Shown here piece after piece: positions 4,494 through 60,707 of a stretch of 64,000 bases of DNA (positions within the stretch are counted from its first letter, which is position 1; every line of letters begins with the position of its first letter). Origin of the DNA: a candidate division Kazan bacterium. Its GTDB lineage: Bacteria > Patescibacteriota > Kazan-3B-28. The stretch is taken from assembly GCA_003647645.1 (NCBI GenBank), contig QMNG01000002.1, positions 65,151 through 129,150 of the forward strand. Direction: 5' to 3'. A model generated the notes under the pieces. It worked only from the letters and a program-made list of their open reading frames with translations. It searched no databases and was not told the origin of the DNA. Made by a program: the position numbers and the translations under genes.

Positions 4494-4568
4494 GCGGGTA
4501 TCGTATAGCGGCTATTATATCTGCCTTCCAAGCAGAAGATGCGGGTTCGACTCCCGCTACCCGCTCCA
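4494..4568 (+). tRNA. tRNA-Gly (anticodon TCC), CCA encoded
   Basis: Acceptor GCGGGTA/TACCCGC, anticodon stem TCTGC/GCAGA with loop CTTCCAA, T-arm GCGGGTTCGACTCCCGC, 3' TCCA. Confidence 0.9.
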
Positions 4569-4610
4569 GATGACATTAAATAGTTCTCTCTCATGCCGAC
4601 TTTTGTGTAC

Positions 4611-4639
4611 TTGACACGAAGGGTTCTTTGTGATATAAT
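4611..4639 (+). promoter_or_regulatory. Perfect consensus sigma-70 promoter
   Basis: TTGACA (4611-4616), 17-nt spacer, TATAAT (4634-4639), upstream of the 4745 ORF. Confidence 0.65.
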
Positions 4640-4744
4640 TGAATAATGTTTGGCCTAAAAGTTTAGAAAATATGTCAGAGTGTCGTGATGCTGCGGAGGG
4701 AAGTTTATTTAAAAATCGTTTGTTGAAATATTAATTAAGGATTG

Positions 4745-5134
4745 ATGAAAAACAAAAATAAAAATATTTTTAGGAAGCTTAGGTCTATTCTTATTAACTC
4801 CGGTTATGATGTGGTTCTGACTGGTCGATTCAACCCTCCCCGAGACATCAGAGGGCTGAGATTTAGAAGTGTCAAGGGATATATTGCTCCAGACAGTTTA
4901 AAAATTTATATAAACAAAGCTATGCCGGTTAATGATCGAGTTATCACTCTGATCCACGAACTTCTGCATGAAATGTATCCGGTTTGGACGGAGTCTAAGG
5001 TAGAACGGGAATCAAAAAATATTTTCCAGTCATTAACAGTTCCTCAGTTGGGTTTCATTCAGTTTTTTGTTATGACTAAGCCGGAAATCAACAGAACTCT
5101 CAAGCAACAGCCATTTCATTCCCCTATCTGTTAA
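4745..5134 (+). CDS. Small hypothetical protein with HExxH metallopeptidase-like motif
   Basis: ~129 aa. The only recognisable element is ITLIHELLHEMYP (HExxH). The ATG at 4745 is preferred over the TTG at 4742. Confidence 0.5.
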   Translation: MKNKNKNIFRKLRSILINSGYDVVLTGRFNPPRDIRGLRFRSVKGYIAPDSLKIYINKAMPVNDRVITLIHELLHEMYPVWTESKVERESKNIFQSLTVPQLGFIQFFVMTKPEINRTLKQQPFHSPIC

Positions 5135-5360
5135 TCCCAAGAATATTTTTAAGGCTTTACCTATTTCCGTCAGTCGCGGAAATTTTTTATTCTTGGATCG
5201 TTTCTTTTTGCCGATGGTTATTCGGTTTTAGTGAAAAGCAGATAGTATTTAATTTTTTGGATGTTCTCTGAAATTTGTATTTTAATTAGATTTCCATATT
5301 GCTTGTGCTAAATTTATAATGTACTCTACAACAATGTTTCTTTTATTTAAATGCGCTCTT

Positions 5361-5436
5361 GCCCCGGTAGCTCAGTGGATAGAGCATCGGTTTTCTAAAC
5401 CGAGGGTCGCAGGTTCGAATCCTGCCCGGGGTGCCA
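5361..5436 (+). tRNA. tRNA-Arg (anticodon TCT), CCA encoded
   Basis: Acceptor GCCCCGG/CCGGGGT, D-arm TAGCTCAGTGGATAGAGCA, anticodon loop TTTCTAA, T-arm GCAGGTTCGAATCCTGC, 3' GCCA. Confidence 0.9.
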
Positions 5437-5480
5437 CAAGAGGTTTTGCCCCATTAACAATCAGCGACGGTTAGTTATTA
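5437..5480. repeat. tRNA-trailer repeat (hairpin + CAATTAACAAT-type segment), copy 1
   Basis: CAAGAGGTTTTGCCCCATTAACAATCAGCGACGGTTAGTTATT aligns with the sequences following tRNA-Arg(CCG) at 6087 and preceding tRNA-Lys(TTT) at 16228. Confidence 0.6.
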
Positions 5481-5542
5481 AATATAGTTAAAGCGGTATC
5501 ATTATAGTAACCGATTTTAAATTACCGCATTGCGGTGTTCAT

Positions 5543-5619
5543 GGTGGACGTAGCTTAATGGTAAAGCTCCCGGTTGTGGTCCGGGCGATCTGCGGGTTCG
5601 AATCCCGTCGTCCACCCCA
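5543..5619 (+). tRNA. tRNA-His (anticodon GTG) with encoded G-1 and CCA
   Basis: An extra 5' G pairs with C73 (G-GTGGACG...CGTCCAC-C-CCA). Anticodon stem CCCGG/CCGGG with loop TTGTGGT. T-loop GTTCGAATC. Confidence 0.9.
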
Positions 5620-5626
5620 CCAATAT

Positions 5627-6019
5627 ATGCTTATGAAGATTGATAAAAAAGAATTTAAGTCTGCCGTTTATAAACTTGTTAAGTTAATCCCTAGGGGCAA
5701 TGTGATGACCTATGGTCAGATTGCTGCGCTGCTTGGCTATCCCAGAGCAGCCCAATATGTTGGTTGGACGCTGCACTGGGCAAAATTTGAGGATGTTCCA
5801 TATCAGCGGGTAGTTAATAGATTTGGCGGTCTGGCGTCGGGCTACTCGCGTGGCGGCAGAGAAGCTCATAGATTCGATTTGGAAACTCTTGAGGGGATTA
5901 AAGTGCGCGACGACATGACTATCGATCTTGAAAAATATATCTGGCATCCGCCCCAAGATCTGATTCCCAAGATTAGATCGGCCGGGGTGCTGGAAGACAT
6001 ACCCTTCAAGTCCCCGTAG
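5627..6019 (+). CDS. Alkyltransferase-like (Atl) / MGMT DNA-binding-domain protein lacking the active-site Cys
   Basis: IPRGNVMTYGQIAALLGYPRAAQYVGWTL plus VPYQRVVN in place of the MGMT PCHRV motif, so there is no acceptor cysteine. The start is moved to the ATG at 5627 because the longer ORF would run through tRNA-His. Confidence 0.75.
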   Translation: MLMKIDKKEFKSAVYKLVKLIPRGNVMTYGQIAALLGYPRAAQYVGWTLHWAKFEDVPYQRVVNRFGGLASGYSRGGREAHRFDLETLEGIKVRDDMTIDLEKYIWHPPQDLIPKIRSAGVLEDIPFKSP

Positions 6020-6086
6020 CTCAGCGGATTAGAGCGTTGGTTTCCGGTACCAAAGGTCGGAGGTTCGAATCCTCCCGGGGACGCCA
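6010..6086 (+). tRNA. tRNA-Arg (anticodon CCG), CCA encoded
   Basis: Acceptor GTCCCCG/CGGGGAC, anticodon stem TTGGT/ACCAA with loop TTCCGGT, T-arm GGAGGTTCGAATCCTCC. Its 5' end overlaps the last 10 nt of the preceding CDS. Confidence 0.9.
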
Positions 6087-6215
6087 CAAAAGGAGCTTTG
6101 CTCCAATTAACAATTAGCAATGGTCAATTGCCAGTTATTATTGAAGAAATATTATATAATGACAATCAATTGAGAATTAAAAATTGTGAATTGGAAATTG
6201 CCGCGCAGCGGCCTT
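6087..6215. repeat. tRNA-associated repeat (trailer of tRNA-Arg / leader of tRNA-Lys), copy 2
   Basis: GGAGCTTTGCTCC hairpin + CAATTAACAATTAGCAATGGTCAATTGCCAGTTATT ... AATTGTGAATTGGAAATTGCCGCGCAGCGGC. The same modules recur at 16228-16415. Confidence 0.7.
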
Positions 6216-6290
6216 GGGTGCATAGCTCAGCGGTAGAGCAGTCGCCTCTTAAGCGATTGGCCGCAGGTTCGAATCCTGCTGCACCCACCA
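6216..6290 (+). tRNA. tRNA-Lys (anticodon CTT), CCA encoded
   Basis: Acceptor GGGTGCA/TGCACCC, anticodon loop CTCTTAA, T-arm GCAGGTTCGAATCCTGC, 3' ACCA. Confidence 0.9.
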
Positions 6291-6443
6291 TATTAAAAAT
6301 TCGAAGCACTAAATCCGAAATCCTAAACAAGCACGAAGCACTAAATTTTAAACAGAAACAAGAAAACAGTTTGGGACATTGGAATTTAATATTTAGAATT
6401 TGTTTAGAGTTTAGATATTAGAATTTAGAATTTAACTTTTTTA

Positions 6444-6518
6444 GGCCCCATCGTCTAATGGTTAGGACGTCAGCTTTTCAAGCTGAAAACAGGAGTTCGA
6501 TTCTCCTTGGGGCTACCA
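6444..6518 (+). tRNA. tRNA-Glu (anticodon TTC), CCA encoded
   Basis: Acceptor GGCCCCA/TGGGGCT, anticodon stem TCAGC/GCTGA with loop TTTTCAA, T-arm AGGAGTTCGATTCTCCT, 3' ACCA. Confidence 0.88.
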
Positions 6519-6774: not shown

Positions 6775-7080
6775 ATGAACGACGAAATGGACACAGCCCC
6801 CACGGGCGACGAAGAAAATACTGATGTTACCCCTACGGCTGATGATGCGCCTGCCGCTGATGACGACAACACTACAGGTGCAGATGGCGAAGAAGCAGCT
6901 CCCGAGGCTGCTCCTGAAACTCCTGCCGAAGAAGCAGCTCCCGAGGCCGCTCCTGAAACTCCCGCCGAAGCAGCTCCCGAGGCTCCTGCGGAAGAAGCAG
7001 CTCCCGAGGCTCCTGCCGAAGAAGCAGCTCCCGAAGCCGCCTCAGATGAAGGCGACAATAATGAAGAAAACGCAGTGTAA
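6775..7080 (+). CDS. Small highly acidic Pro/Ala/Glu-repeat protein (predicted disordered)
   Basis: 101 aa with a strong RBS (AAGAGGAGAATTATG). Repeated EEAAPEAAPETPA units. It has its own promoter-like and terminator-like signals. Other frames and the opposite strand are also open, which is a low-complexity artefact. Confidence 0.6.
   Translation: MNDEMDTAPTGDEENTDVTPTADDAPAADDDNTTGADGEEAAPEAAPETPAEEAAPEAAPETPAEAAPEAPAEEAAPEAPAEEAAPEAASDEGDNNEENAV
6889..7041. repeat. Tandem in-frame DNA repeats inside the acidic protein gene
   Basis: Reiterated GAAGAAGCAGCTCCCGAGGCTGCTCCTGAAACTCCTGCC units and shortened GAAGAAGCAGCTCCCGAGGCTCCTGC(C/G) units. Confidence 0.8.
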
Positions 7081-16227: not shown

Positions 16228-16415
16228 AAGGAGCTTCGCTCCAATTAACAATTAACAATGATCAATTACCAATTACCATCAAGGAAGAAGTTTTATTCTC
16301 TGAGCGAAGTCGAAGAGACACATTAATGTAATCCTTCGACTCACTTCGCTCGCTCAGGACATAATTAATTGAAAATTGTGAATTGAAAATTGGAAATTGC
16401 CGCGCAGCGGCTCAG
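16228..16415. repeat. tRNA-associated repeat, copy 3, carrying a nested palindromic MITE-like insert
   Basis: GGAGCTTCGCTCC + CAATTAACAATTAACAATGATCAATTACCAATTACC ... AATTGTGAATTGAAAATTGGAAATTGCCGCGCAGCGGC matches 6087-6215. An extra palindrome sits at 16295-16360. Confidence 0.7.
16295..16360. repeat. Palindromic MITE-like element (CTGAGCG...GTCGAAG / CTTCGAC...CGCTCAG family)
   Basis: ATTCTCTGAGCGAAGTCGAAGAG...CCTTCGACTCACTTCGCTCGCTCAGGAC forms a long hairpin. Related copies are at 48401, 48741, 50866 and 57961. Confidence 0.7.
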
Positions 16416-45663: not shown

Positions 45664-45753
45664 TGTGGATAACTCCCCTCTTTTTAAAAGTTATCCACAT
45701 TAATATACAAAATATTTATGGCATAAATATTTTCAAAAAGAGAGTTATCCACC
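45664..45753. promoter_or_regulatory. Cluster of DnaA-box 9-mers (two perfect, one 8/9)
   Basis: TGTGGATAA at 45664-45672 (reverse-strand TTATCCACA), TTATCCACA at 45691-45699, TTATCCACC at 45745-45753. A fourth perfect box (TGTGGATAA) lies at 46363-46371. Confidence 0.6.
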
Positions 45754-45760
45754 TACAAGA

Positions 45761-45825
45761 GTGTTGTAGGTGTTTTGATTATTCCGCTTCCATATTATAT
45801 AAAAGACCTACAAGACCCTTGTAAC
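45761..45825 (+). repeat. 65-bp perfect direct repeat, copy 1
   Basis: GTGTTGTAGGTGTTTTGATTATTCCGCTTCCATATTATATAAAAGACCTACAAGACCCTTGTAAC, identical to 46202-46266. Contains a TTGATT-17-TATAAA promoter-like element. Confidence 0.9.
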
Positions 45826-46201
45826 TTGACAAATTAATAAAAAAATGACGATTTTTTTATAGGTGTAGAAAAATCAAAAAATATTATGACATAAAACTGA
45901 CCTACAAATCAAATGTAGGTACCTACAAGACCCTTGTAACCTCACCTACAACGCCCTTGTAGGTCATGACAATTTTGGTTACAAGCGTGTTGTAGGTCTA
46001 CAATCTTTGAAAATCCGCTACCATACTATATATGTGTATGTCAGTGTTTTATAATGATCAAAAAATATAGGCAAAAAAATTGGGGGTTGCAAGACCCTTG
46101 TAGGTTGACCTATAATGGTCTTGTAGGTACCTACAAGACCATGTTAACCCTCGCAGCAATTTTTGCCATTTTAGTGATTTTTTACGCCAGCACCTAACAC
46201 G

Positions 46202-46266
46202 GTGTTGTAGGTGTTTTGATTATTCCGCTTCCATATTATATAAAAGACCTACAAGACCCTTGTAAC
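46202..46266 (+). repeat. 65-bp perfect direct repeat, copy 2 (immediately upstream of the MerR-like gene)
   Basis: Identical to 45761-45825. The embedded TTGATT (46216-46221) / TATAAA (46239-46244) pair lies ~60 nt upstream of the ATG at 46307. Confidence 0.9.
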
Positions 46267-46306
46267 CCCCAAAATTACGATTTGCTAATATAACTTCGAA
46301 AAAATT

Positions 46307-46891
46307 ATGAAAATTGAACAAAAAGTCGAATTGAAAAAAGTCGAAAAATCGAGAAATCCCAATGTGGATAACTTTCAAGTCTCGTCCGATTCTAATATTG
46401 AAACTTACTCTTTATCCGAAGTTGCCAAATATTTAAATGTTAATGAGGGGACTCTGCGCAACTGGGAGAAAAGATTCAGTGAATTTCTTTCTAATTATCG
46501 TAATCAGCTTAATCATAGGGCCTTTACCGAAGGTGATGTTAAGGTGTTAGAACGTATCAAAGCTCTAATAGAATCAGGTCTTTTCACCCAATCTGGCGTT
46601 AAGCACATGCTGAGCAATAAAAGGGGTTCCCGGTCCGGGGGCGCCAATCAAGAGGGGATTGTTCCGGTAGAAAATATGTTCGCCAAACCTCCTTCAGGAG
46701 TAGCCCAGATGGATGACAAGTACAAAGAAAAGCTACTGATGGCGCTCAACTCCTTAGGTTCAGAAATTCACGCTCTCAGACGCGAAACTAGAGAGGATTT
46801 AAAAGAATCGCTAAAACGTGAGATTGAACATCTAACTTTATTGCTTTTTCCACCAGAAAAGCCAAAACGACCTTGGTGGAAGATCTGGTAG
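46307..46891 (+). CDS. MerR-like helix-turn-helix protein with C-terminal coiled-coil region
   Basis: 194 aa. YSLSEVAKYLNVNEGTLRNWEKRF is a MerR/HTH_17-type recognition unit. A perfect DnaA box lies within codons 19-22. Confidence 0.65.
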   Translation: MKIEQKVELKKVEKSRNPNVDNFQVSSDSNIETYSLSEVAKYLNVNEGTLRNWEKRFSEFLSNYRNQLNHRAFTEGDVKVLERIKALIESGLFTQSGVKHMLSNKRGSRSGGANQEGIVPVENMFAKPPSGVAQMDDKYKEKLLMALNSLGSEIHALRRETREDLKESLKREIEHLTLLLFPPEKPKRPWWKIW

Positions 46892-47400: not shown

Positions 47401-48684
47401 ATGAAAAAAGCCATTGTGAAGCCAAAAAAGGTGAAAAAACGTAACTGGCGGGATCACTTTAAGCCCAGTGAAAACTTCAAGTTGGATAAAAACTATCCCA
47501 AACCAACTGTTTTTGTAGCGATGAGTGGGGGGGTGGACTCCTCCGTAGCCGCCTATTTGCTGAAAAAAGAGGGTTATCAGGTGGTGGGGGTGTTCATGAA
47601 GAACTGGTCTTTCCCTGAAGTTTCTCTGAAACACTGCCAATTGTTCAAAGATTACAAGGACATGGTAAAAGTCTGTAAATTTCTGAAGATTCCATATCTG
47701 GTCTTTAGCTTTGAAAAGGAATACAAAAAACGGGTGATGGAAAGGTTTTTTAGGGAATACAAGACCGACCGTACACCAAATCCGGATATTTTGTGCAATA
47801 CCGAGATTAAGTTTGACCTGTTTTTGAAGAAAGCAATCAAACTGGGCGCTGATTTAATCGCTACCGGACACCATATAAGGCGCAAATGTGCCAATGACCA
47901 ATTATCAATTACCAATGGTCAATGTAAGAAATATCATTTATTAAAGGGAAAAGACGCTATAAAAGACCAAACTTACTTTGTTTATAATTTAACACAAAAC
48001 CAGCTCTCACACTGTCTTTTTCCGATAGGGGAGTACTCAAAAGACCAAATCCGCAAGATTGCTCATAAATTAGGGCTTCCGACTGCCTACAAACGGGATA
48101 GCCAGGGGATTTGCTTCATCGGCAGGATCAACGTAAAAGATTTTCTTAAGACCAAAATTGCAGAGCGGGAAGGAAATATTGTCGATATGAAAGGAAATGT
48201 GCTTGGCAAACATGAGGGAGCTTGGTTTTACACTATCGGCCAGAGGCGAATTGACGGACTTTCTGGAACTACTAAGCCGTTGTATGTGGTAGCCACGGAT
48301 GTAAAGAAAAATCTGGTAATTGTTGGTCCAGACAGGGCGACCTATCGCAAAGGCGTAATTCTGGAGAAGTTCCATCTGATTGATAAAAGTTACTTCAGTT
48401 GTCATCCTGAGCGAAGCGTAGCGAAGTCGAAGGATCTTATAAAACAGATTCCTCGACAAGCTCGGAATGACAGGGGAAAAAGCGGAAATGAAAGCTATGG
48501 TGGTTTAACTGCCAAACCCCGCTATGGGCCTGAAGTTTATCCCGGAAAACTTGAAAAAAGAGGCAGAACATGGCGTTTCATGTTTACTAAGCCCCAAAGG
48601 GCTCTCACCCCGGGACAATCTCTGGTAATTTATGACAAAGATGTCTGTTTGGGCGGGGGAGTTATAAAGAAAATTATCAATTAA
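47401..48684 (+). CDS. mnmA: tRNA-specific 2-thiouridylase MnmA carrying two in-frame repeat-derived insertions
   Basis: PP-loop VAMSGGVDSSVAAYLL, RTPNPDILCN, ATGHH, KDQTYF, GICFIG and C-terminal TPGQSLVIYDKDVCLGGGVI match MnmA. At 427 aa it is ~60 aa longer than the E. coli protein as I recall it. The extra segments coincide with dispersed repeats. Confidence 0.88.
   Translation: MKKAIVKPKKVKKRNWRDHFKPSENFKLDKNYPKPTVFVAMSGGVDSSVAAYLLKKEGYQVVGVFMKNWSFPEVSLKHCQLFKDYKDMVKVCKFLKIPYLVFSFEKEYKKRVMERFFREYKTDRTPNPDILCNTEIKFDLFLKKAIKLGADLIATGHHIRRKCANDQLSITNGQCKKYHLLKGKDAIKDQTYFVYNLTQNQLSHCLFPIGEYSKDQIRKIAHKLGLPTAYKRDSQGICFIGRINVKDFLKTKIAEREGNIVDMKGNVLGKHEGAWFYTIGQRRIDGLSGTTKPLYVVATDVKKNLVIVGPDRATYRKGVILEKFHLIDKSYFSCHPERSVAKSKDLIKQIPRQARNDRGKSGNESYGGLTAKPRYGPEVYPGKLEKRGRTWRFMFTKPQRALTPGQSLVIYDKDVCLGGGVIKKIIN
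47891..47925. repeat. CAATTA(A/C)CAAT-type short repeat inside mnmA
   Basis: CCAATGACCAATTATCAATTACCAATGGTCAATG resembles the tRNA-associated repeat segment at 6105-6140 and 16243-16280. It encodes ANDQLSITNGQC. Confidence 0.6.
48401..48472. repeat. Palindromic MITE-like element inserted in frame in mnmA
   Basis: GTCATCCTGAGCGAAGCGTAGCGAAGTCGAAGGATC...GATTCCTCGACAAGCTCGGAATGAC. The termini are inverted complements. It encodes SCHPERSVAKSKDLIKQIPRQARND. Confidence 0.75.
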
Positions 48685-48703
48685 CAATTACCAATTGACA
48701 ATG
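48676..48703. repeat. CAATTAACAAT-type short repeat overlapping the mnmA stop
   Basis: ATCAATTAACAATTACCAATTGACAATG. Confidence 0.5.
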
Positions 48704-48740: not shown

Positions 48741-48800
48741 ATCTCCTGAGCGTAGTCGAAGGACTACCCAATGTAACTCTTCGACAAGCTCAGAGAATAA
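48741..48800. repeat. Palindromic MITE-like element
   Basis: ATCTCCTGAGCGTAGTCGAAGGAC...CTCTTCGACAAGCTCAGAGAATAA. Confidence 0.7.
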
Positions 48801-49428: not shown

Positions 49429-49466
49429 AATAATAAAACTTGTCCTCTCCAATAACAAAACTTGTC

Positions 49467-49811
49467 CTCGGGCTTGACCCGGGGACCCAGAAAGAAAAAT
49501 GGCTGGTTATTTATATATTCTTTCTAATCAGAAAAACGGTACTCTGTATATTGGTGCGTCATCTGCTCTAGTTAAAAGAATTTGGGAACATAAAAACAAA
49601 TTTATACCTGGGTTTAGCCAAAAGTATCATCTCAACAGATTAGTATATTATGAACAATTTGGCGATGTTATCTCAGCTCGCGCCAGGGAAAGGCAACTTA
49701 AGAAATGGAAACGGAGCTGGAAGATAGATCTAATCGAAAAAGATAATCCAACCTGGAAAGATTTATATCCATCAATAATTGGTTTTTCTGGACCTCCGGG
49801 TCAAGCCCGAA
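49467..49811. mobile_element. GIY-YIG nuclease cassette bracketed by 15-bp inverted repeats, inserted between sigma factor and its partner gene
   Basis: TCGGGCTTGACCCGG (49467-49481) and its exact complement CCGGGTCAAGCCCGA (49797-49811) flank the ORF body. The second sigma/partner pair in the window lacks such an insert. Confidence 0.5.
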
Positions 49812-49846
49812 GGAAAGAAGAAAAAGAGCCCGAAGGAAAGAAATAA
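49499..49846 (+). CDS. GIY-YIG family small nuclease
   Basis: GYLYILSNQKNGTLYIGASSALVKRIWEH (GIY...YIG) plus RERQLKKWKR. Confidence 0.85.
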   Translation: MAGYLYILSNQKNGTLYIGASSALVKRIWEHKNKFIPGFSQKYHLNRLVYYEQFGDVISARARERQLKKWKRSWKIDLIEKDNPTWKDLYPSIIGFSGPPGQARRKEEKEPEGKK

Positions 49847-50865: not shown

Positions 50866-50952
50866 ATATATACTATTTCCCGAGCCTGTCGAAGGATTAC
50901 ATTGTAGTTGTTTATATTTCCCTTTCGGGATTTCTAGTCAAGCTCAGAATGA
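50866..50952. repeat. Palindromic MITE-like element
   Basis: ATATATACTATTTCCCGAGCCTGTCGAAGGAT...GGGATTTCTAGTCAAGCTCAGAATGAC. Confidence 0.65.
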
Positions 50953-51143
50953 CAGTAGGGTATTTTATTCTCTATTCCTTGTATTTTTATCTGCAAATAG
51001 CTACAATACTAGAAGTTGAAGGGACTTAAACAGTAACGATTTGTGCATTAAGTCAAATGGAGAATGTTCGGTACTAGAGCAGGTTTTTAATACATTGTGT
51101 AACAAAAATATGGTTATAATCGTTATAGATAGTGTAAGGTCAT

Positions 51144-57891: not shown

Positions 57892-57960
57892 TTCCCTCAA
57901 GCTCAACGCTAGTTATTTGCTTCGCAAAGTGGAGGAGATAAATAGTATATACTATGTTAT

Positions 57961-58030
57961 ATACTATTTCCTGAGCTTGTTGCAGGACTACTTTGGGTTT
58001 TGTATCTCTTCGACTACGCTCAGAGAATAA
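57961..58030. repeat. Palindromic MITE-like element
   Basis: ATACTATTTCCTGAGCTTGTTGCAGGAC...CTCTTCGACTACGCTCAGAGAATAA. Same family as 48741-48800. Confidence 0.65.
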
Positions 58031-58070
58031 AGAATATTTTTCTCTACTCTCTATACTCTATTCTCTGCTT

Positions 58071-58288
58071 AATAAAAAAGGCCGCCGATCAGTGGGCCCT
58101 AAGTAAATATGTGGCTACGACCGGCGGCGCAAAGAGCACCGTACCGTCATGTCGAGCTTTATTGTCTTAGGACCAAAGAAGGGGACAAATTTCTTTATCC
58201 GCTTGTCTGGTCCCAAAACCAGCTCGAAAATTTTTGAAAATGTGCAACAACAAGTTTTATGTTGATGTTACCACAACAGAACGGCAAC
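58071..58288 (-). ncRNA. Candidate small RNA of unknown class (orphan promoter + terminator on minus strand)
   Basis: Minus-strand TTGCAC (58323-58318), 17-nt spacer, TATAAC (58300-58295). Minus-strand terminator: stem GCCGCCGGTC/GATCGGCGGC (58081-58128) followed by CTTTTTTATT. No ORF of 60 aa or more in between. An internal nested hairpin CGAGCT..GGACC..GACAA..TTGTC..GGTCC..AGCTCG. Confidence 0.3.
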
Positions 58289-58386
58289 GGTTTAGTTATA
58301 CCATAGTTGTCTAGTTTGTGCAAGGGTTTTGTCTCGGAGATATAAAAATATTGGCTCTAGAACAGTATAATTTATTTAATTTTTCT

Positions 58387-58415
58387 TTGAGCTTAAGAGC
58401 TAAAAACGGTATAAT
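58387..58415 (+). promoter_or_regulatory. Sigma-70-type promoter upstream of FN3 protein gene
   Basis: TTGAGC (58387-58392), 17-nt spacer, TATAAT (58410-58415). Confidence 0.5.
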
Positions 58416-58464
58416 ATGGTTAGAGTACAGAGAATAGAGAGTAGAGAATAAGAACAACATTGCT

Positions 58465-58539
58465 GTCATTGCGAGGAACGGAAGTGACGAAGCAATCTAT
58501 ATCTAGGCACTTAGATTGCCACGCTCCGCTCGCAATGAC
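58465..58539. repeat. Palindromic MITE-like element (GTCATTGCGAGG...CTCGCAATGAC type) in 5' leader
   Basis: GTCATTGCGAGGAACGGAAGTGACGAAGCAATCT...AGATTGCCACGCTCCGCTCGCAATGAC. Confidence 0.7.
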
Positions 58540-58596
58540 AAATGATAGGAAGATAATATAAAAGTTAATTCGGGGACGACACAAAAGGCAAAGAGG

Positions 58597-59808
58597 ATGA
58601 AAATTAAAATCAGTTATATATTTTTGGGGATATTGTTGCTATCAGCAATGATTGCGCCACTACGCGCTGTAGCCGCCATTGATGCGCCTTGGGGCGTGGT
58701 GGTCGAGGAAGGTGACAGTAAATATGATCTGCGGCTCTGGTGGGCCAATCCTAATATCGCTAACTTGGATCATATTAATTTGTATATGGCAGCCGGCTCT
58801 CTTGAGCACCCCAGCGTGATAGAAGTTGGCGGAGAGCAAGCCCGGCCGCATCAAATTGGCACCTACCAAGTTGAAGATTTAATTTCGGGGGTTTGGTATT
58901 ATTTCTATTTGGTTGCAGTTGATACAAAAGGGAATGAAAGTCCTCGCACCGACTATTACAAACGCCGGACTGGAATAGCTGCCGATGTTACATCACCGTA
59001 TAGTGTCAGTTCTGTGTTTGTTAATGATGTTCGGCACGATGGGTTGACTCTTAATTGGGCAAATCCGGGTGATGACGATTTCTACCGAACTTTAATATAT
59101 CGTTCAACCGACAGCAATGTTCTGGCCAGCGAAACTAACTTGCTTGGACGGCAAGTGGCGCTGCCAAGCACCGTTAAAAAGTATGTTGACAGCGGTCTCG
59201 AGCCGGAAACTACTTATTACTATCGCCTGGTAGCAGAAGACGTTAAAGGCAATAAAAGCGAGTCAGTTATCGTGTCAGAAACAACACAGGCCGCGCCAGT
59301 AGCGGAACCCGAGCCGGAGCCCGTTGAACCAAGTGAATCTGAAGATCAAGATGACGCTGGCATCGTTCCGGATGTGATGCCGAATCCGGCCCTGTTTGAT
59401 TACCGAGCCGAATGGGTGAGTCAAAGCGGAACAGTAAATAACGCCGGCACTGCTCATGTAGTCACGGCCAGTGTTGGTGAAACAATTACCCTGGAATTAA
59501 CTTTAAAAAATACCGGCTCATCCTGGTGGTATTTTAAAACTCCGGATAACGCTCATGAAGTAAAGATTGGAACTTGGAATGAGGCTGACAGAATAAGTTT
59601 ATTTAAAGCTGACAGTTGGCTATCCGTTAATCGCGCTTCTACGCTCGATGCGGTTGTGCCGACAGGCAGTATGGCTACATTTAGTTTTGATTTGACAATT
59701 CCCGCCGATACAGCGGCCGGAGTCTATTCCGAATACTTTCGGCCGGTGGCAGAGTATGTTGAGTGGTTTGGCCCAACGGGAATATTTTGGGAAATAGAAG
59801 TGAACTAG
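58597..59808 (+). CDS. Secreted protein with two fibronectin type III-like domains and a C-terminal NBR1-like domain
   Basis: Signal peptide. FN3-like segments (LRLWWANP...YYFYLVAVDTKGNES and LTLNWANPGDDDFYRTLIYRS...TYYYRLVAEDVKGNKS). A Pro/Glu linker. C-terminal YRAEWVSQSG...GVYSEYFRPVAEYVEWFG domain. Confidence 0.8.
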   Translation: MKIKISYIFLGILLLSAMIAPLRAVAAIDAPWGVVVEEGDSKYDLRLWWANPNIANLDHINLYMAAGSLEHPSVIEVGGEQARPHQIGTYQVEDLISGVWYYFYLVAVDTKGNESPRTDYYKRRTGIAADVTSPYSVSSVFVNDVRHDGLTLNWANPGDDDFYRTLIYRSTDSNVLASETNLLGRQVALPSTVKKYVDSGLEPETTYYYRLVAEDVKGNKSESVIVSETTQAAPVAEPEPEPVEPSESEDQDDAGIVPDVMPNPALFDYRAEWVSQSGTVNNAGTAHVVTASVGETITLELTLKNTGSSWWYFKTPDNAHEVKIGTWNEADRISLFKADSWLSVNRASTLDAVVPTGSMATFSFDLTIPADTAAGVYSEYFRPVAEYVEWFGPTGIFWEIEVN

Positions 59809-59843
59809 AATCATGAATCATGAATCAAGGGAAACCGCCACTC

Positions 59844-59918
59844 GTCATTCTGAACTTATTTCAGAATCTAGATCCTGAACTAAACCTGTGCTGGTCTTGC
59901 CGAATGTATTCAGGATGA
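59844..59918. repeat. Palindromic MITE-like element (GTCATTCTGAAC...TTCAGGATGAC type)
   Basis: GTCATTCTGAACTTATTTCAGAATCTAGATCCTGAAC...GTATTCAGGATGAC. Confidence 0.65.
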
Positions 59919-59980
59919 CAATAGATAAGAAACAAAAACATCCATAATTCGTAATTCTTTATTCATAATTCAAACTTATC

Positions 59981-60321: not shown

Positions 60322-60373
60322 GTCATCCTGAATTTAGTTCAGGATCTAGATACTGAAACAAGTTCAGTATGAC
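60322..60373. repeat. Palindromic MITE-like element upstream of the second GIY-YIG gene
   Basis: GTCATCCTGAATTTAGTTCAGGATCTAGATACTGAAACAAGTTCAGTATGAC. Confidence 0.65.
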
Positions 60374-60707
60374 AATATTAAGTGGCAGAATGACAATACT
60401 ACAAATATGAAAAAAGGATTTGTGTACATTCTGACTAATAAACCCAAGGGAGTTTTGTATGTTGGGGTAACTAGTGATATAGAAAATCGTATTGGTATAC
60501 ATTCGCTCAATAAAAATAATTCATTTGTTGCCAAATATAAACTATATAAATTAGTCCATTTAGAAGAGTTTAGTAGTATTGAAGAAGCAGTAAGAAGAGA
60601 AAAACAAATAAAAAATTGGCATAGAAATTGGAAAATCAACCTGATTGAAACGAATAATCCAAAATGGGATAATCTATTATTAGATTCTGAAACAAGTTCA
60701 AAATGAC
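60347..60707. mobile_element. GIY-YIG nuclease cassette flanked by ~27-bp direct repeats
   Basis: TAGATACTGAAACAAGTTCAGTATGAC (60347-60373) and TAGATTCTGAAACAAGTTCAAAATGAC (60681-60707) bracket the ORF. Confidence 0.45.
60407..60706 (+). CDS. GIY-YIG family small nuclease, copy 2
   Basis: GFVYILTNKPKGVLYVGVTSDIENRIGIH and REKQIKNWHR. Paralogous to 49499-49846. Confidence 0.85.
   Translation: MKKGFVYILTNKPKGVLYVGVTSDIENRIGIHSLNKNNSFVAKYKLYKLVHLEEFSSIEEAVRREKQIKNWHRNWKINLIETNNPKWDNLLLDSETSSK

Follow-up and report, generated by a model that had tools for sequence, protein, structure and literature searches.

Hairpin-forming repeats carried in frame within the tRNA-modification gene mnmA of a candidate division Kazan bacterium: a probable case of tolerated selfish DNA

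A stretch of 64,000 nucleotides from a candidate division Kazan bacterium (contig QMNG01000002.1, positions 65,151 to 129,150; hereafter the window) contains a gene for the tRNA 2-thiouridine(34) synthase, mnmA, whose reading frame runs without interruption through two segments of repeat DNA. One of these is an array of imperfect heptads, and the other a two-armed palindrome of 73 nt with GTCAT...ATGAC ends. We consider it probable that mnmA was colonised by selfish hairpin DNA, and that the inserts are tolerated as loops of the enzyme. In Rickettsia, palindromes inserted in frame into housekeeping genes have become a textbook curiosity, and the locus is a new example of known phenomena, namely of in-frame palindromes resembling the Rickettsia palindromic elements (RPEs), and of elements resembling NTS, the Neisseria form of the Ssn-related motif (SRM), with its Ssn nucleases. 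The aspects that are new here, and that we offer as leads, are the identity of the palindrome arms across phyla, the link to small GIY-YIG nuclease genes, the heptad companions, the recurrent targeting of the same protein loops and the frozen sequence of the palindrome.

Repeat insertions in the loops of MnmA

The open reading frame (ORF) at 47401..48684(+) codes for a protein of 427 aa, which matches Pfam families PF03054 (1.9e-72), PF20259 (1.3e-21) and PF20258 (1.1e-12), and passes the NCBIfam equivalog for MnmA, NF001138, with 397.6 bits against a cut-off of 284. Its nearest database relatives are named MnmA proteins of Patescibacteria (the candidate phyla radiation), and the three-domain layout typical of MnmA, comprised of the HUP catalytic domain, the PRC-barrel and the C-terminal barrel, is complete.

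Insert 1, CANDQLSITNGQC, is flanked by ATGHHIRRK and KYHLLKGKD, and is encoded at 47891..47925(+) by five imperfect heptads (CAATGAC CAATTAT CAATTAC CAATGGT CAATG), read as ANDQLSITNGQ in a beta-hairpin loop of the catalytic domain (repeat search, ortholog alignment and structural model). Insert 2, SCHPERSVAKSKDLIKQIPRQARND..., is encoded by the palindrome at 48400..48473(+), which has GTCAT...ATGAC ends, is read as CHPERSVAKSKDLIKQIPRQARND, and was delineated by profile, folding and alignment. It consists of a left arm (48401-48437, GTCATCCTGAGCG..GTCGAAGGATCT), a loop, and a right arm (48447-48473, AGATTCCTCGACAAGCTCGGAATGACA), all of the same element on the forward strand. As a single strand the palindrome folds into one long hairpin of -29 kcal/mol (z = -3.6), and none of 200 shuffled versions folds as well. 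Relative to the MnmA of S. pneumoniae (2HMA), insert 1 adds 9 aa and insert 2 adds 28 aa. Both inserts are in frame and free of stops, as an earlier note made from the sequence of the window had stated; only two of the six frames of the mnmA palindrome copy are open. A further heptad array (CAATTAA CAATTAC CAATTGA CAATG; 48672..48702(+), repeat search) begins within the last codons of the gene, and the TAA of its first CAATTAA unit is the stop codon of mnmA. The ortholog P0003 likewise takes its stop codon from a heptad array (L003 5063-5095).

The earlier note had regarded the two segments as extra to the MnmA layout, and the comparison of four orthologous loci with the common neighbourhood MerR...mnmA...sigma-70 agrees with this. 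Two orthologs of 75-77% identity and the same synteny, P0004 and P0005, possess neither insert, and in the P0004 genome the spacer after mnmA is compact and repeat-free. P0002, at 85% identity, has both inserts, and P0003, at 76%, carries other repeats at both sites: (GAATCTG)4 at site 1, and at site 2 the palindrome GTCATTCCCGA...GCGGGAATGAC (GTCATTCCCGATTTAGTCGGGGATCC...GGATTCTCGCCTGCGCGGGAATGAC). The existence of insert-less orthologs at 75-77% identity shows the inserts to be derived, lineage-specific acquisitions.

An AlphaFold model of the protein, computed with an alignment of 120 sequences, has a mean pLDDT of 91.4 and a pTM of 0.89, and Foldseek relates it to the solved MnmA structures 2HMA, 2DET, 2DEU and 2DER with target-normalised TM scores of 0.88-0.92 (0.89-0.92 for 2HMA and 2DET). 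Both inserts fall in loops predicted with low confidence, the rest of the model being confident. Insert 1 forms the tip of a hairpin between strands 158-163 and 178-182, with a pLDDT of about 72-79, and insert 2 occupies residues ~331-363, between strands 315-326 and 364-372, with a pLDDT of about 54. The model supports the suggestion of the earlier note that the inserts are tolerated as surface loops, here of a presumably working enzyme.

In many Patescibacteria these two loops hold repeat-derived inserts of other kinds. The modal site-1 loop in the 120 closest orthologs is 12 residues long, and it is extended by at least 8 residues (up to 80) in 53 proteins; at site 2 the mode is 18 residues, which 22 proteins exceed by at least 8; and in 11 of the 120 a further loop, located in the C-terminal barrel, is longer by at least 8 residues. 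At the DNA level, site 1 of P0026 is filled by the GTCAT...ATGAC palindrome CGTCATCCTGAACTTGTTTCAGGATCT...ATTCCGGATCAAGTCCGGAATGACG, and that of P0012 by another, GTCATTCCGACCGTAGTGGAGGAATCT...CCCTCGACTTTGCTCAGGATGAC. P0063 carries twice, in frame, the full composite of (GTCGCGA)n heptads, a GTCAT...ATGAC palindrome and (CTCGTCA)n heptads. The same MnmA loops have been struck time and again, by varied elements of one kind. These hot spots would be the places where MnmA tolerates extra residues, with a possible contribution from a preference of the elements for existing ones.

The palindrome family and its heptad companions

As simple string searches for the palindrome within the window were weak, a family pattern was derived instead, CCTGAGCG-N0-12-AGTCGAAGGA-N10-40-TCGACAAGCTC, and scanned on one genome per bacterial species (596 Gb). 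It recovered at least 119 stretches, against a chance expectation of about 0.002 by our own estimate for these 596 Gb. A profile built from foreign copies only then detected the mnmA insert (48399-48473) at E 3.7e-17, along with other sites in the window at 48744-48794 (6e-10), 16309-16360 (1e-5) and, more weakly, 57969-58023 (4e-4) and 50888-50955 (6e-4). Three more GTCAT...ATGAC palindromes of the window (58465-58539, 59844-59919 and 60322-60373) have different interiors. The copy at 48744..48794(+), recognised by profile and folding, is intergenic, lies 42 nt past the heptad array at the end of mnmA, and is kept at the orthologous spot of L001, the locus of the closest ortholog; the intergenic copy at 50878..50955(+), recognised by profile, is degenerate with its right end, GCTCAGAATGAC, intact. 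All the GTCAT...ATGAC-type elements of the window but one lie within 13 kb (47.9-60.4 kb), a distribution that recalls the local clustering of NTS in Neisseria.

The 123 foreign copies listed share a common plan of an outer stem, CCTGAGCG(±AGCGNAGCG)AAGTCGAAGGATC, a variable loop, GATYCCTCGACAAGCTC(R)GG and the other side of the outer stem. The latter is GTCAT/ATGAC in 50 of these copies and GTCGT/ACGAC in 11, with further self-complementary variants including CGTTCGT/ACGAACG, and it pairs at six or more of seven positions in 84. Its positions covary: at -2 there are 75 A-T and 24 G-C pairs, and at -5 there are 79 G-C, 17 T-A and 5 C-G pairs. These compensatory changes indicate that the end-to-end hairpin is selected.

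The hosts among the matches listed include Patescibacteria, Verrucomicrobiota/Kiritimatiellia, Bacteroidota (Pedobacter, Chryseobacterium), Alpha-, Beta- and Gammaproteobacteria (Pseudomonadota), Rickettsiales, Chloroflexota, Planctomycetota, Eremiobacterota, Clostridia, Nitrospinota and others, the Rickettsiales being represented by three metagenome-assembled genomes (MAGs; L013, L033 and L106). The left arm of the window palindrome is identical at 37 of 37 positions to a Kiritimatiellia copy, and its right arm at 27 of 27 to copies in MAGs of Rickettsiales, Bdellovibrionales, Saccharibacteria and Moraniibacteriota. Nor is in-frame residence confined to MnmA: copies of the family are lodged in frame in UvrB (Parcubacteria), TsaD (Saccharimonadales), iPGM and PurL (an alphaproteobacterium), GlnE, YjbH, a GT1 glycosyltransferase and a sigma-54 activator, and in several of these host proteins the element breaks up or lengthens the match to the Pfam domain.

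Searching the whole window against Rfam at the gathering thresholds returned tRNAs only, and a search at E<=1 of four canonical family loci and of 57900-58600 returned nothing; the element hence corresponds to no RNA family, ribozyme or intron described so far. Two further candidates were set aside. A hammerhead-like core (CUGAnGA...GAAA) was rejected by eye, as it misfits at the conserved positions and finds no support in Rfam, and integron attC sites and IS200/IS605 ends were rejected on account of misfitting termini (no GTTRRRY) and of the lack of a detectable Y1 transposase.

The heptads of insert 1 belong to a repeat type that is over-represented in the window. The motif CAATTAMCAAT, with at most one mismatch, occurs 19 times against 5.1 expected, a count reached by none of 100 shuffles, and its clusters lie at 6104-6200, 16242-16399, 47892-47916 and 48678-48702, the first two directly upstream of tRNA-Lys genes. 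This bears out the earlier note, which had traced insert 1 to a CAATTA(A/C)CAAT-type repeat also found near tRNA genes. BLAST of insert 1 recovers 6103-6128 at 92% identity over 26 nt (E 3e-5). Upstream of tRNA-Lys(UUU) the array is part of a composite (16241..16399(+); repeat search and profile) of (CAATTAA)n, the palindrome 16296-16360 and inverted (AATTGNN)n, and upstream of tRNA-Lys(CUU) the same heptad pair stands without the central palindrome (6104..6200(+); repeat search). Comparable composites, with no strand assigned, are found at 57969..58066, where the palindrome-family copy 57969-58023 is followed by (TTCTCTA)4 heptads at 58040-58066 (profile and tandem-repeat search); at 58421..58539, where (TAGAGAA)5 heptads precede the palindrome GTCATTGCGAGG...GCTCGCAATGAC (58465-58539; repeat search); and at 59808..59972, where the palindrome GTCATTCTGAAC...TTCAGGATGAC (59844-59919; repeat search) stands between (GAATCAT)3 and (CATAATT)4 heptads. 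Altogether, seven of the nine period-7 tandem arrays of the window have a palindrome within 45 nt, whereas random placement brings a mean of 0.10 and a maximum of 3 that close (20,000 trials). The heptad unit differs in sequence between sites and between genomes. On this pattern of association, the heptad arrays are companion modules of the palindromes, belonging to the same system.

Two other arrangements of heptads were observed in the window. Both tRNA-Lys genes are preceded by a module of ~120 nt, GGAGCTTYGCTCC-(CAATTAA)n...(AATTGNN)n-GCCGCGCAGCGGC (6087-6215 and 16233-16415), with the palindrome centred in the second; the module lies within or beside the tRNA cluster 4494-6518. Between the inverted (TTCTCTA)4 and (TAGAGAA)5 arrays (58040-58454) there is a stretch of ~330 nt (58070-58400) without an ORF of at least 80 aa and without an Rfam match at E<=1, and it could be a non-coding RNA not yet described, or cargo carried by a composite element.

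Small GIY-YIG nuclease genes and likeness to known repeat systems

Two small genes for GIY-YIG proteins are associated with hairpin arms in the window. Gene #1 (49499-49846, 115 aa; whole unit 49462..49846(+), from ORF and arm inspection) has the inverted arms GTCCTCGGGCTTGACCCGGGGACC at 49462-49487 and GGACCTCCGGGTCAAGCCCGAAGGA at 49791-49815. Gene #2 (60407-60706, 99 aa) follows the palindrome 60322-60373, and its 3' end is the arm AGATTCTGAAACAAGTTCAAAATGAC (whole unit 60322..60707(+), from homology and arms). Both proteins match PF01541 alone, and their closest solved structure is 1ZG2, a UPF0213 protein. When the protein of gene #1 was used as query against the ORFs of all loci (~8 kb each), it recovered gene #2 and ORFs in L014 (two), L108, L077 and L026 with E values of 1e-21 to 1e-30. 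Every GIY-YIG ORF so found lies between two hairpin arms, and no transposase was found between arms in these loci. The arms in L108, from Patescibacteria, are GTCGTCCTGAGCG..GAGTCGAAGGATCC and AGATCCCTCGACAAGCTCGGGACGAC, of the same subtype as the mnmA insert; those in L026 are GTCATCCCAGCGCAGGCTGGGATCC and its complement; and the right arm in L014 reads on the other strand TGTCATTCCCGCGAAGGCGGGAATCCAG, which is the NTS consensus of Neisseria. We propose that the window palindromes are a short form, devoid of a gene, of the units in which hairpin arms enclose a small (~95-115 aa) single-domain GIY-YIG gene. Gene #1 is absent from the orthologous spacer of L001 (12324-12581), which contains palindromes instead, and this presence/absence polymorphism suggests recent mobility.

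On the closest ortholog, in L001 (10001-10090), there is a 28-residue N-terminal extension (TITLRTGPQIQRTSRFGEGPHGPVA...), the DNA of which holds a CCTCCGGACC-type hairpin resembling the arms around gene #1. This extension could represent a third element inserted in frame, located at the 5' end of mnmA.

The Ssn family (CDD cd10448) consists of single-domain GIY-YIG proteins of ~94 aa, which are site-specific nucleases of single-stranded DNA (Chenal 2025, PMC11893778). They bind an oriented hairpin repeat, represented in Neisseria by NTS, CGTCATTCCCGCGMAVGCGGGAATCYRG, and more generally termed SRM, and cut beside it; 42% of ssn genes have SRMs on both sides, and the authors remark on a likeness to an insertion sequence and to the REP/RAYT system (PMC11893778). 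NTS are rarely intragenic (2% in N. meningitidis), and the same paper has no mention of in-frame insertion, Patescibacteria, heptad arrays or RPEs (PMC11893778). The window elements are similar to NTS and SRMs in having a GTCAT leader, a hairpin and ATC(Y), and the family shares with them the position of repeats on both sides of a small single-domain GIY-YIG gene, the presence in many phyla and the local clustering. Against the ~94 aa of single-domain Ssn, the window proteins have 115 and 99 aa with PF01541 only. Unlike those of NTS and SRMs, the window arms contain G-A mismatches or AT-rich stems, and pair into one long hairpin. In P0003, the right arm of the mnmA insert (L003 4802-4829) is a strict SRM, TGTCATTCCCGCGCAGGCGAGAATCCAG, one base away from the Neisseria NTS.

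The RPEs reportedly go back to Ogata et al. 2000. They are short palindromes lodged in frame in unrelated housekeeping genes, where they are read through and tolerated by the fold (review PMC10969869). The palindrome family of mnmA is similar in that its members, too, occupy unrelated conserved genes without disturbing the frame, at sites that the fold can accommodate. It differs in its Patescibacteria host, in a length of ~73 nt as against ~150 bp, and in the heptad arrays, and the two are likened here by behaviour. Our literature search found no paper naming both 'Rickettsia palindromic' and 'GIY-YIG', and searches by the terminal strings of the element, and on Patescibacteria together with MITE (miniature inverted-repeat transposable element), returned nothing relevant.

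Repetitive extragenic palindromes (REPs) and the bacterial interspersed mosaic elements (BIMEs) built from them, with their REP-associated tyrosine transposases (RAYTs), offer another parallel: like the window elements, they are dispersed and clustered hairpins that flank a gene for a small, domesticated nuclease acting on single strands. They have no target-site duplication, and none was evident for the window elements. However, RAYT is an HUH Y1 enzyme (IS200/IS605-like), whereas the genes found here are GIY-YIG, and REPs are extragenic and species-specific, whereas the arms of the window family are near-identical across phyla. The earlier note had placed insert 2 in a MITE-like family present at six or more other sites. 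Its count was about right, but the label needs qualifying. The element does share with MITEs derived from insertion sequences (Correia, QMITE, Nezha) its small size, terminal inverted repeats, non-coding nature, multiple copies and occasional in-frame fusion to ORFs. In the loci examined (~8 kb each), neither a target-site duplication nor a transposase-bearing parent was seen for it, and its relatives bracket GIY-YIG genes, which are the only ones found between arms.

Invariance of the palindrome and competing explanations

Between the window and L001, mnmA is 80.0% identical at the nucleotide level, with synonymous changes in 150 of the 365 codons for identical residues. The longest perfect runs of this comparison are the two inserts, with 73 nt (48400-48472) and 28 nt (47890-47917), the next run being 20 nt; when runs were simulated with codon-position-specific identities, none of 20,000 trials gave one above 54 nt. 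The palindrome, 100% identical to that of the L001 ortholog, has no synonymous change at 16.3 sites, where about 11 were expected, and the nine codons behind it have a dN of 0.48. They include a fast-evolving linker (48474..48497(+), from the alignment) that reads RGKSGNES in the window and KREDGNNS in L001. The insertion with its linker is thus of sufficient age to have diverged, and the palindrome itself has stayed unchanged. Selection on the host protein does not explain this intactness. Either the palindrome is preserved by a constraint that serves the element itself, such as the need to form a hairpin or to be recognised by a nuclease, or it is repeatedly overwritten from other copies or by transfer.

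The colonisation of mnmA by selfish hairpin DNA might be envisaged as follows. The colonisers would be the 73-nt two-armed GTCAT...ATGAC palindrome and, separately, a heptad array of the kind that normally flanks such palindromes. A nuclease of the NTS/SRM-Ssn kind would bind its cognate hairpin on single-stranded DNA and cut next to it, and Ssn-type nucleases may in this way drive the spread or the copy-correction of the element. Insertions would persist only in two tolerant surface loops, the tip of a beta-hairpin of the catalytic domain and the linker that leads into the C-terminal barrel, and only in a stop-free frame of the element, with such a filter of tolerance as the presumed cause of the hot spots. 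The insert would then be transcribed and translated as a disordered loop of an enzyme that still works, and the palindrome would owe its preserved sequence to constraint on the element or to ongoing correction from other copies.

Several results weigh against this account. The published SRM motif, HGTCWYN(0-2)YYVSBRHN(0-5)WNVSBRGN(0-2)RNCYNB, is matched nowhere in the window (0.09 expected); when one mismatch is allowed there are 4 matches against 4.4 expected, none of them at the elements. The misses are likely due to the G-A mismatches or AT-rich stems of the window arms, one subtype of which starts with GTCCT. The elements are therefore not filed as strict SRMs; they resemble SRMs in architecture and in their association with the gene, and fall outside the published definition. 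Neither a target-site duplication, in the flanks of the 123 copies listed, nor a defined target motif was seen. An identical second copy of the mnmA palindrome is present neither in the 64-kb window nor in the 21-kb L001 locus, so that a donor for copy-correction is without direct evidence; a metagenome scan with a loop-specific 32-mer gave 0 matches, but it missed the source contig too and is hence uninformative. The conservation of the heptad insert was considered as a further sign of constraint and rejected, the 28-nt run having P = 0.18. Finally, we infer the translation of the mnmA inserts from frame and selection only, because all the intragenic copies examined keep the frame and avoid stops while two of six frames are open.

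Among the alternatives, the one that survives best attributes the identity of the palindrome in the window and L001 to recent transfer or re-insertion of the same variant, in other words to turnover in place of a standing constraint. There are clear signs of turnover at site 2, including the other element in P0003, an extra partial left end (CGTCATCCTGAACTTACC) in L001 and left ends stacked in tandem in L125, and the presence/absence polymorphism of gene #1 is in keeping with it. Set against these are the lack of an identical donor copy in the available sequence and the near-invariance of the arms across phyla, which points to constraint, and we hold recent turnover to be possible but not the likely explanation of the identity.

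Exaptation of the inserts appears unlikely. According to this proposal, the K/R-rich loop of insert 2 would aid the binding of tRNA, or the mRNA/DNA hairpin would regulate mnmA, and selection on the host would have frozen the 73 nt. It would account for the perfect preservation of the palindrome beside a fast linker and for the stability of its hairpin, and insert 2 does lie between the central and C-terminal domains, which contact tRNA in the E. coli complex (2DER/2DET). Yet in many phyla the arms of intergenic copies are just as frozen as those of intragenic ones, so the constraint travels with the element; P0003 has another element at the same site, and P0004 and P0005 have none; and selection at the protein level cannot yield zero synonymous change.

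The earlier note had also raised the possibility that mnmA is a cryptic pseudogene, with its frame open by chance, for which one might cite the presence of two foreign inserts in a single gene and of a stop codon derived from a repeat. We consider this very improbable. With the inserts removed, 169 of 240 synonymous sites differ between the window and L001 (dS ~2.1, saturated), as against 68 of 891 non-synonymous sites (dN 0.081), giving a dN/dS of 0.039 over 1131 sites. The PP-loop SGGVDSS (S42-S47), Cys132, Cys238 and ~48 further columns are invariant across the 120 orthologs, the confident three-domain model matches solved MnmA, and the insert-bearing form is found in two diverged genomes. 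The low dN/dS, the retention of the catalytic motifs and the confident fold together lead to the rejection of the pseudogene reading. As judged from these comparisons, mnmA is a functional, intact gene under purifying selection, strongly constrained at the protein level.

There is similarly little probability that the inserts escape translation, by intron-like removal or by ribosome bypassing as in the mitochondrial 'byp' elements. A strong hairpin within a coding region could suggest it, but the in-frame, stop-free state of every intragenic copy examined is expected only if the copies are translated. Moreover, no Rfam family, intron or otherwise, was matched, and inspection by eye, without a formal search, revealed no take-off/landing codon pair or splice-like boundary. 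The least probable alternative is that the segments are ancestral, family-specific MnmA loops resembling repeats by chance, for although the length of these loops is variable among MnmA proteins at large, as between S. pneumoniae and the window, the syntenic orthologs at 75-77% identity lack both segments and the likeness to the repeats is significant for insert 1 (the BLAST match to 6103-6128) as well as for insert 2 (the foreign-phyla profile and the identical arms in unrelated phyla).

A broader conjecture, which we advance as doubtful, is that GTCAT...ATGAC hairpins and heptads constitute one pan-bacterial selfish class, moved or copy-corrected by Ssn-type GIY-YIG nucleases. Its members would lodge in frame in permissive loops of housekeeping genes, safe havens where deletion is risky, and be kept sequence-perfect by nuclease-triggered gene conversion, with the RPEs as one local instance. 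If true, the Ssn family would gain a role in mobility, and the 25-year-old puzzle of in-frame palindromes would be explained. Short of this, the locus ties Rickettsia-type behaviour in Patescibacteria, via sequence and gene neighbourhood, to the recently described NTS/SRM-Ssn system, and the frozen element, the cross-phylum arms and the repeated hits on the same loops make a role of the nuclease in mobility or copy-correction directly testable. It also carries a warning for annotation, in that Patescibacteria proteins of outlying length often owe it to inserted repeats and not to new domains.

Two other features of the window may be mentioned. At 45664-46371, three of its four perfect DnaA boxes (TTATCCACA) cluster with one single-mismatch box in a region that holds many ACCTACAAGRCC inverted repeats (45745-46258) and is 83% identical to L001, above the neighbouring genes; a replication origin may lie here. 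At 6821-7036 there are tandem repeats of 39 nt and 27 nt (GAAGCAGCTCCCGAGGCT...), unrelated to the mnmA inserts, which, if genic, would encode a low-complexity stretch rich in Pro, Glu and Ala.

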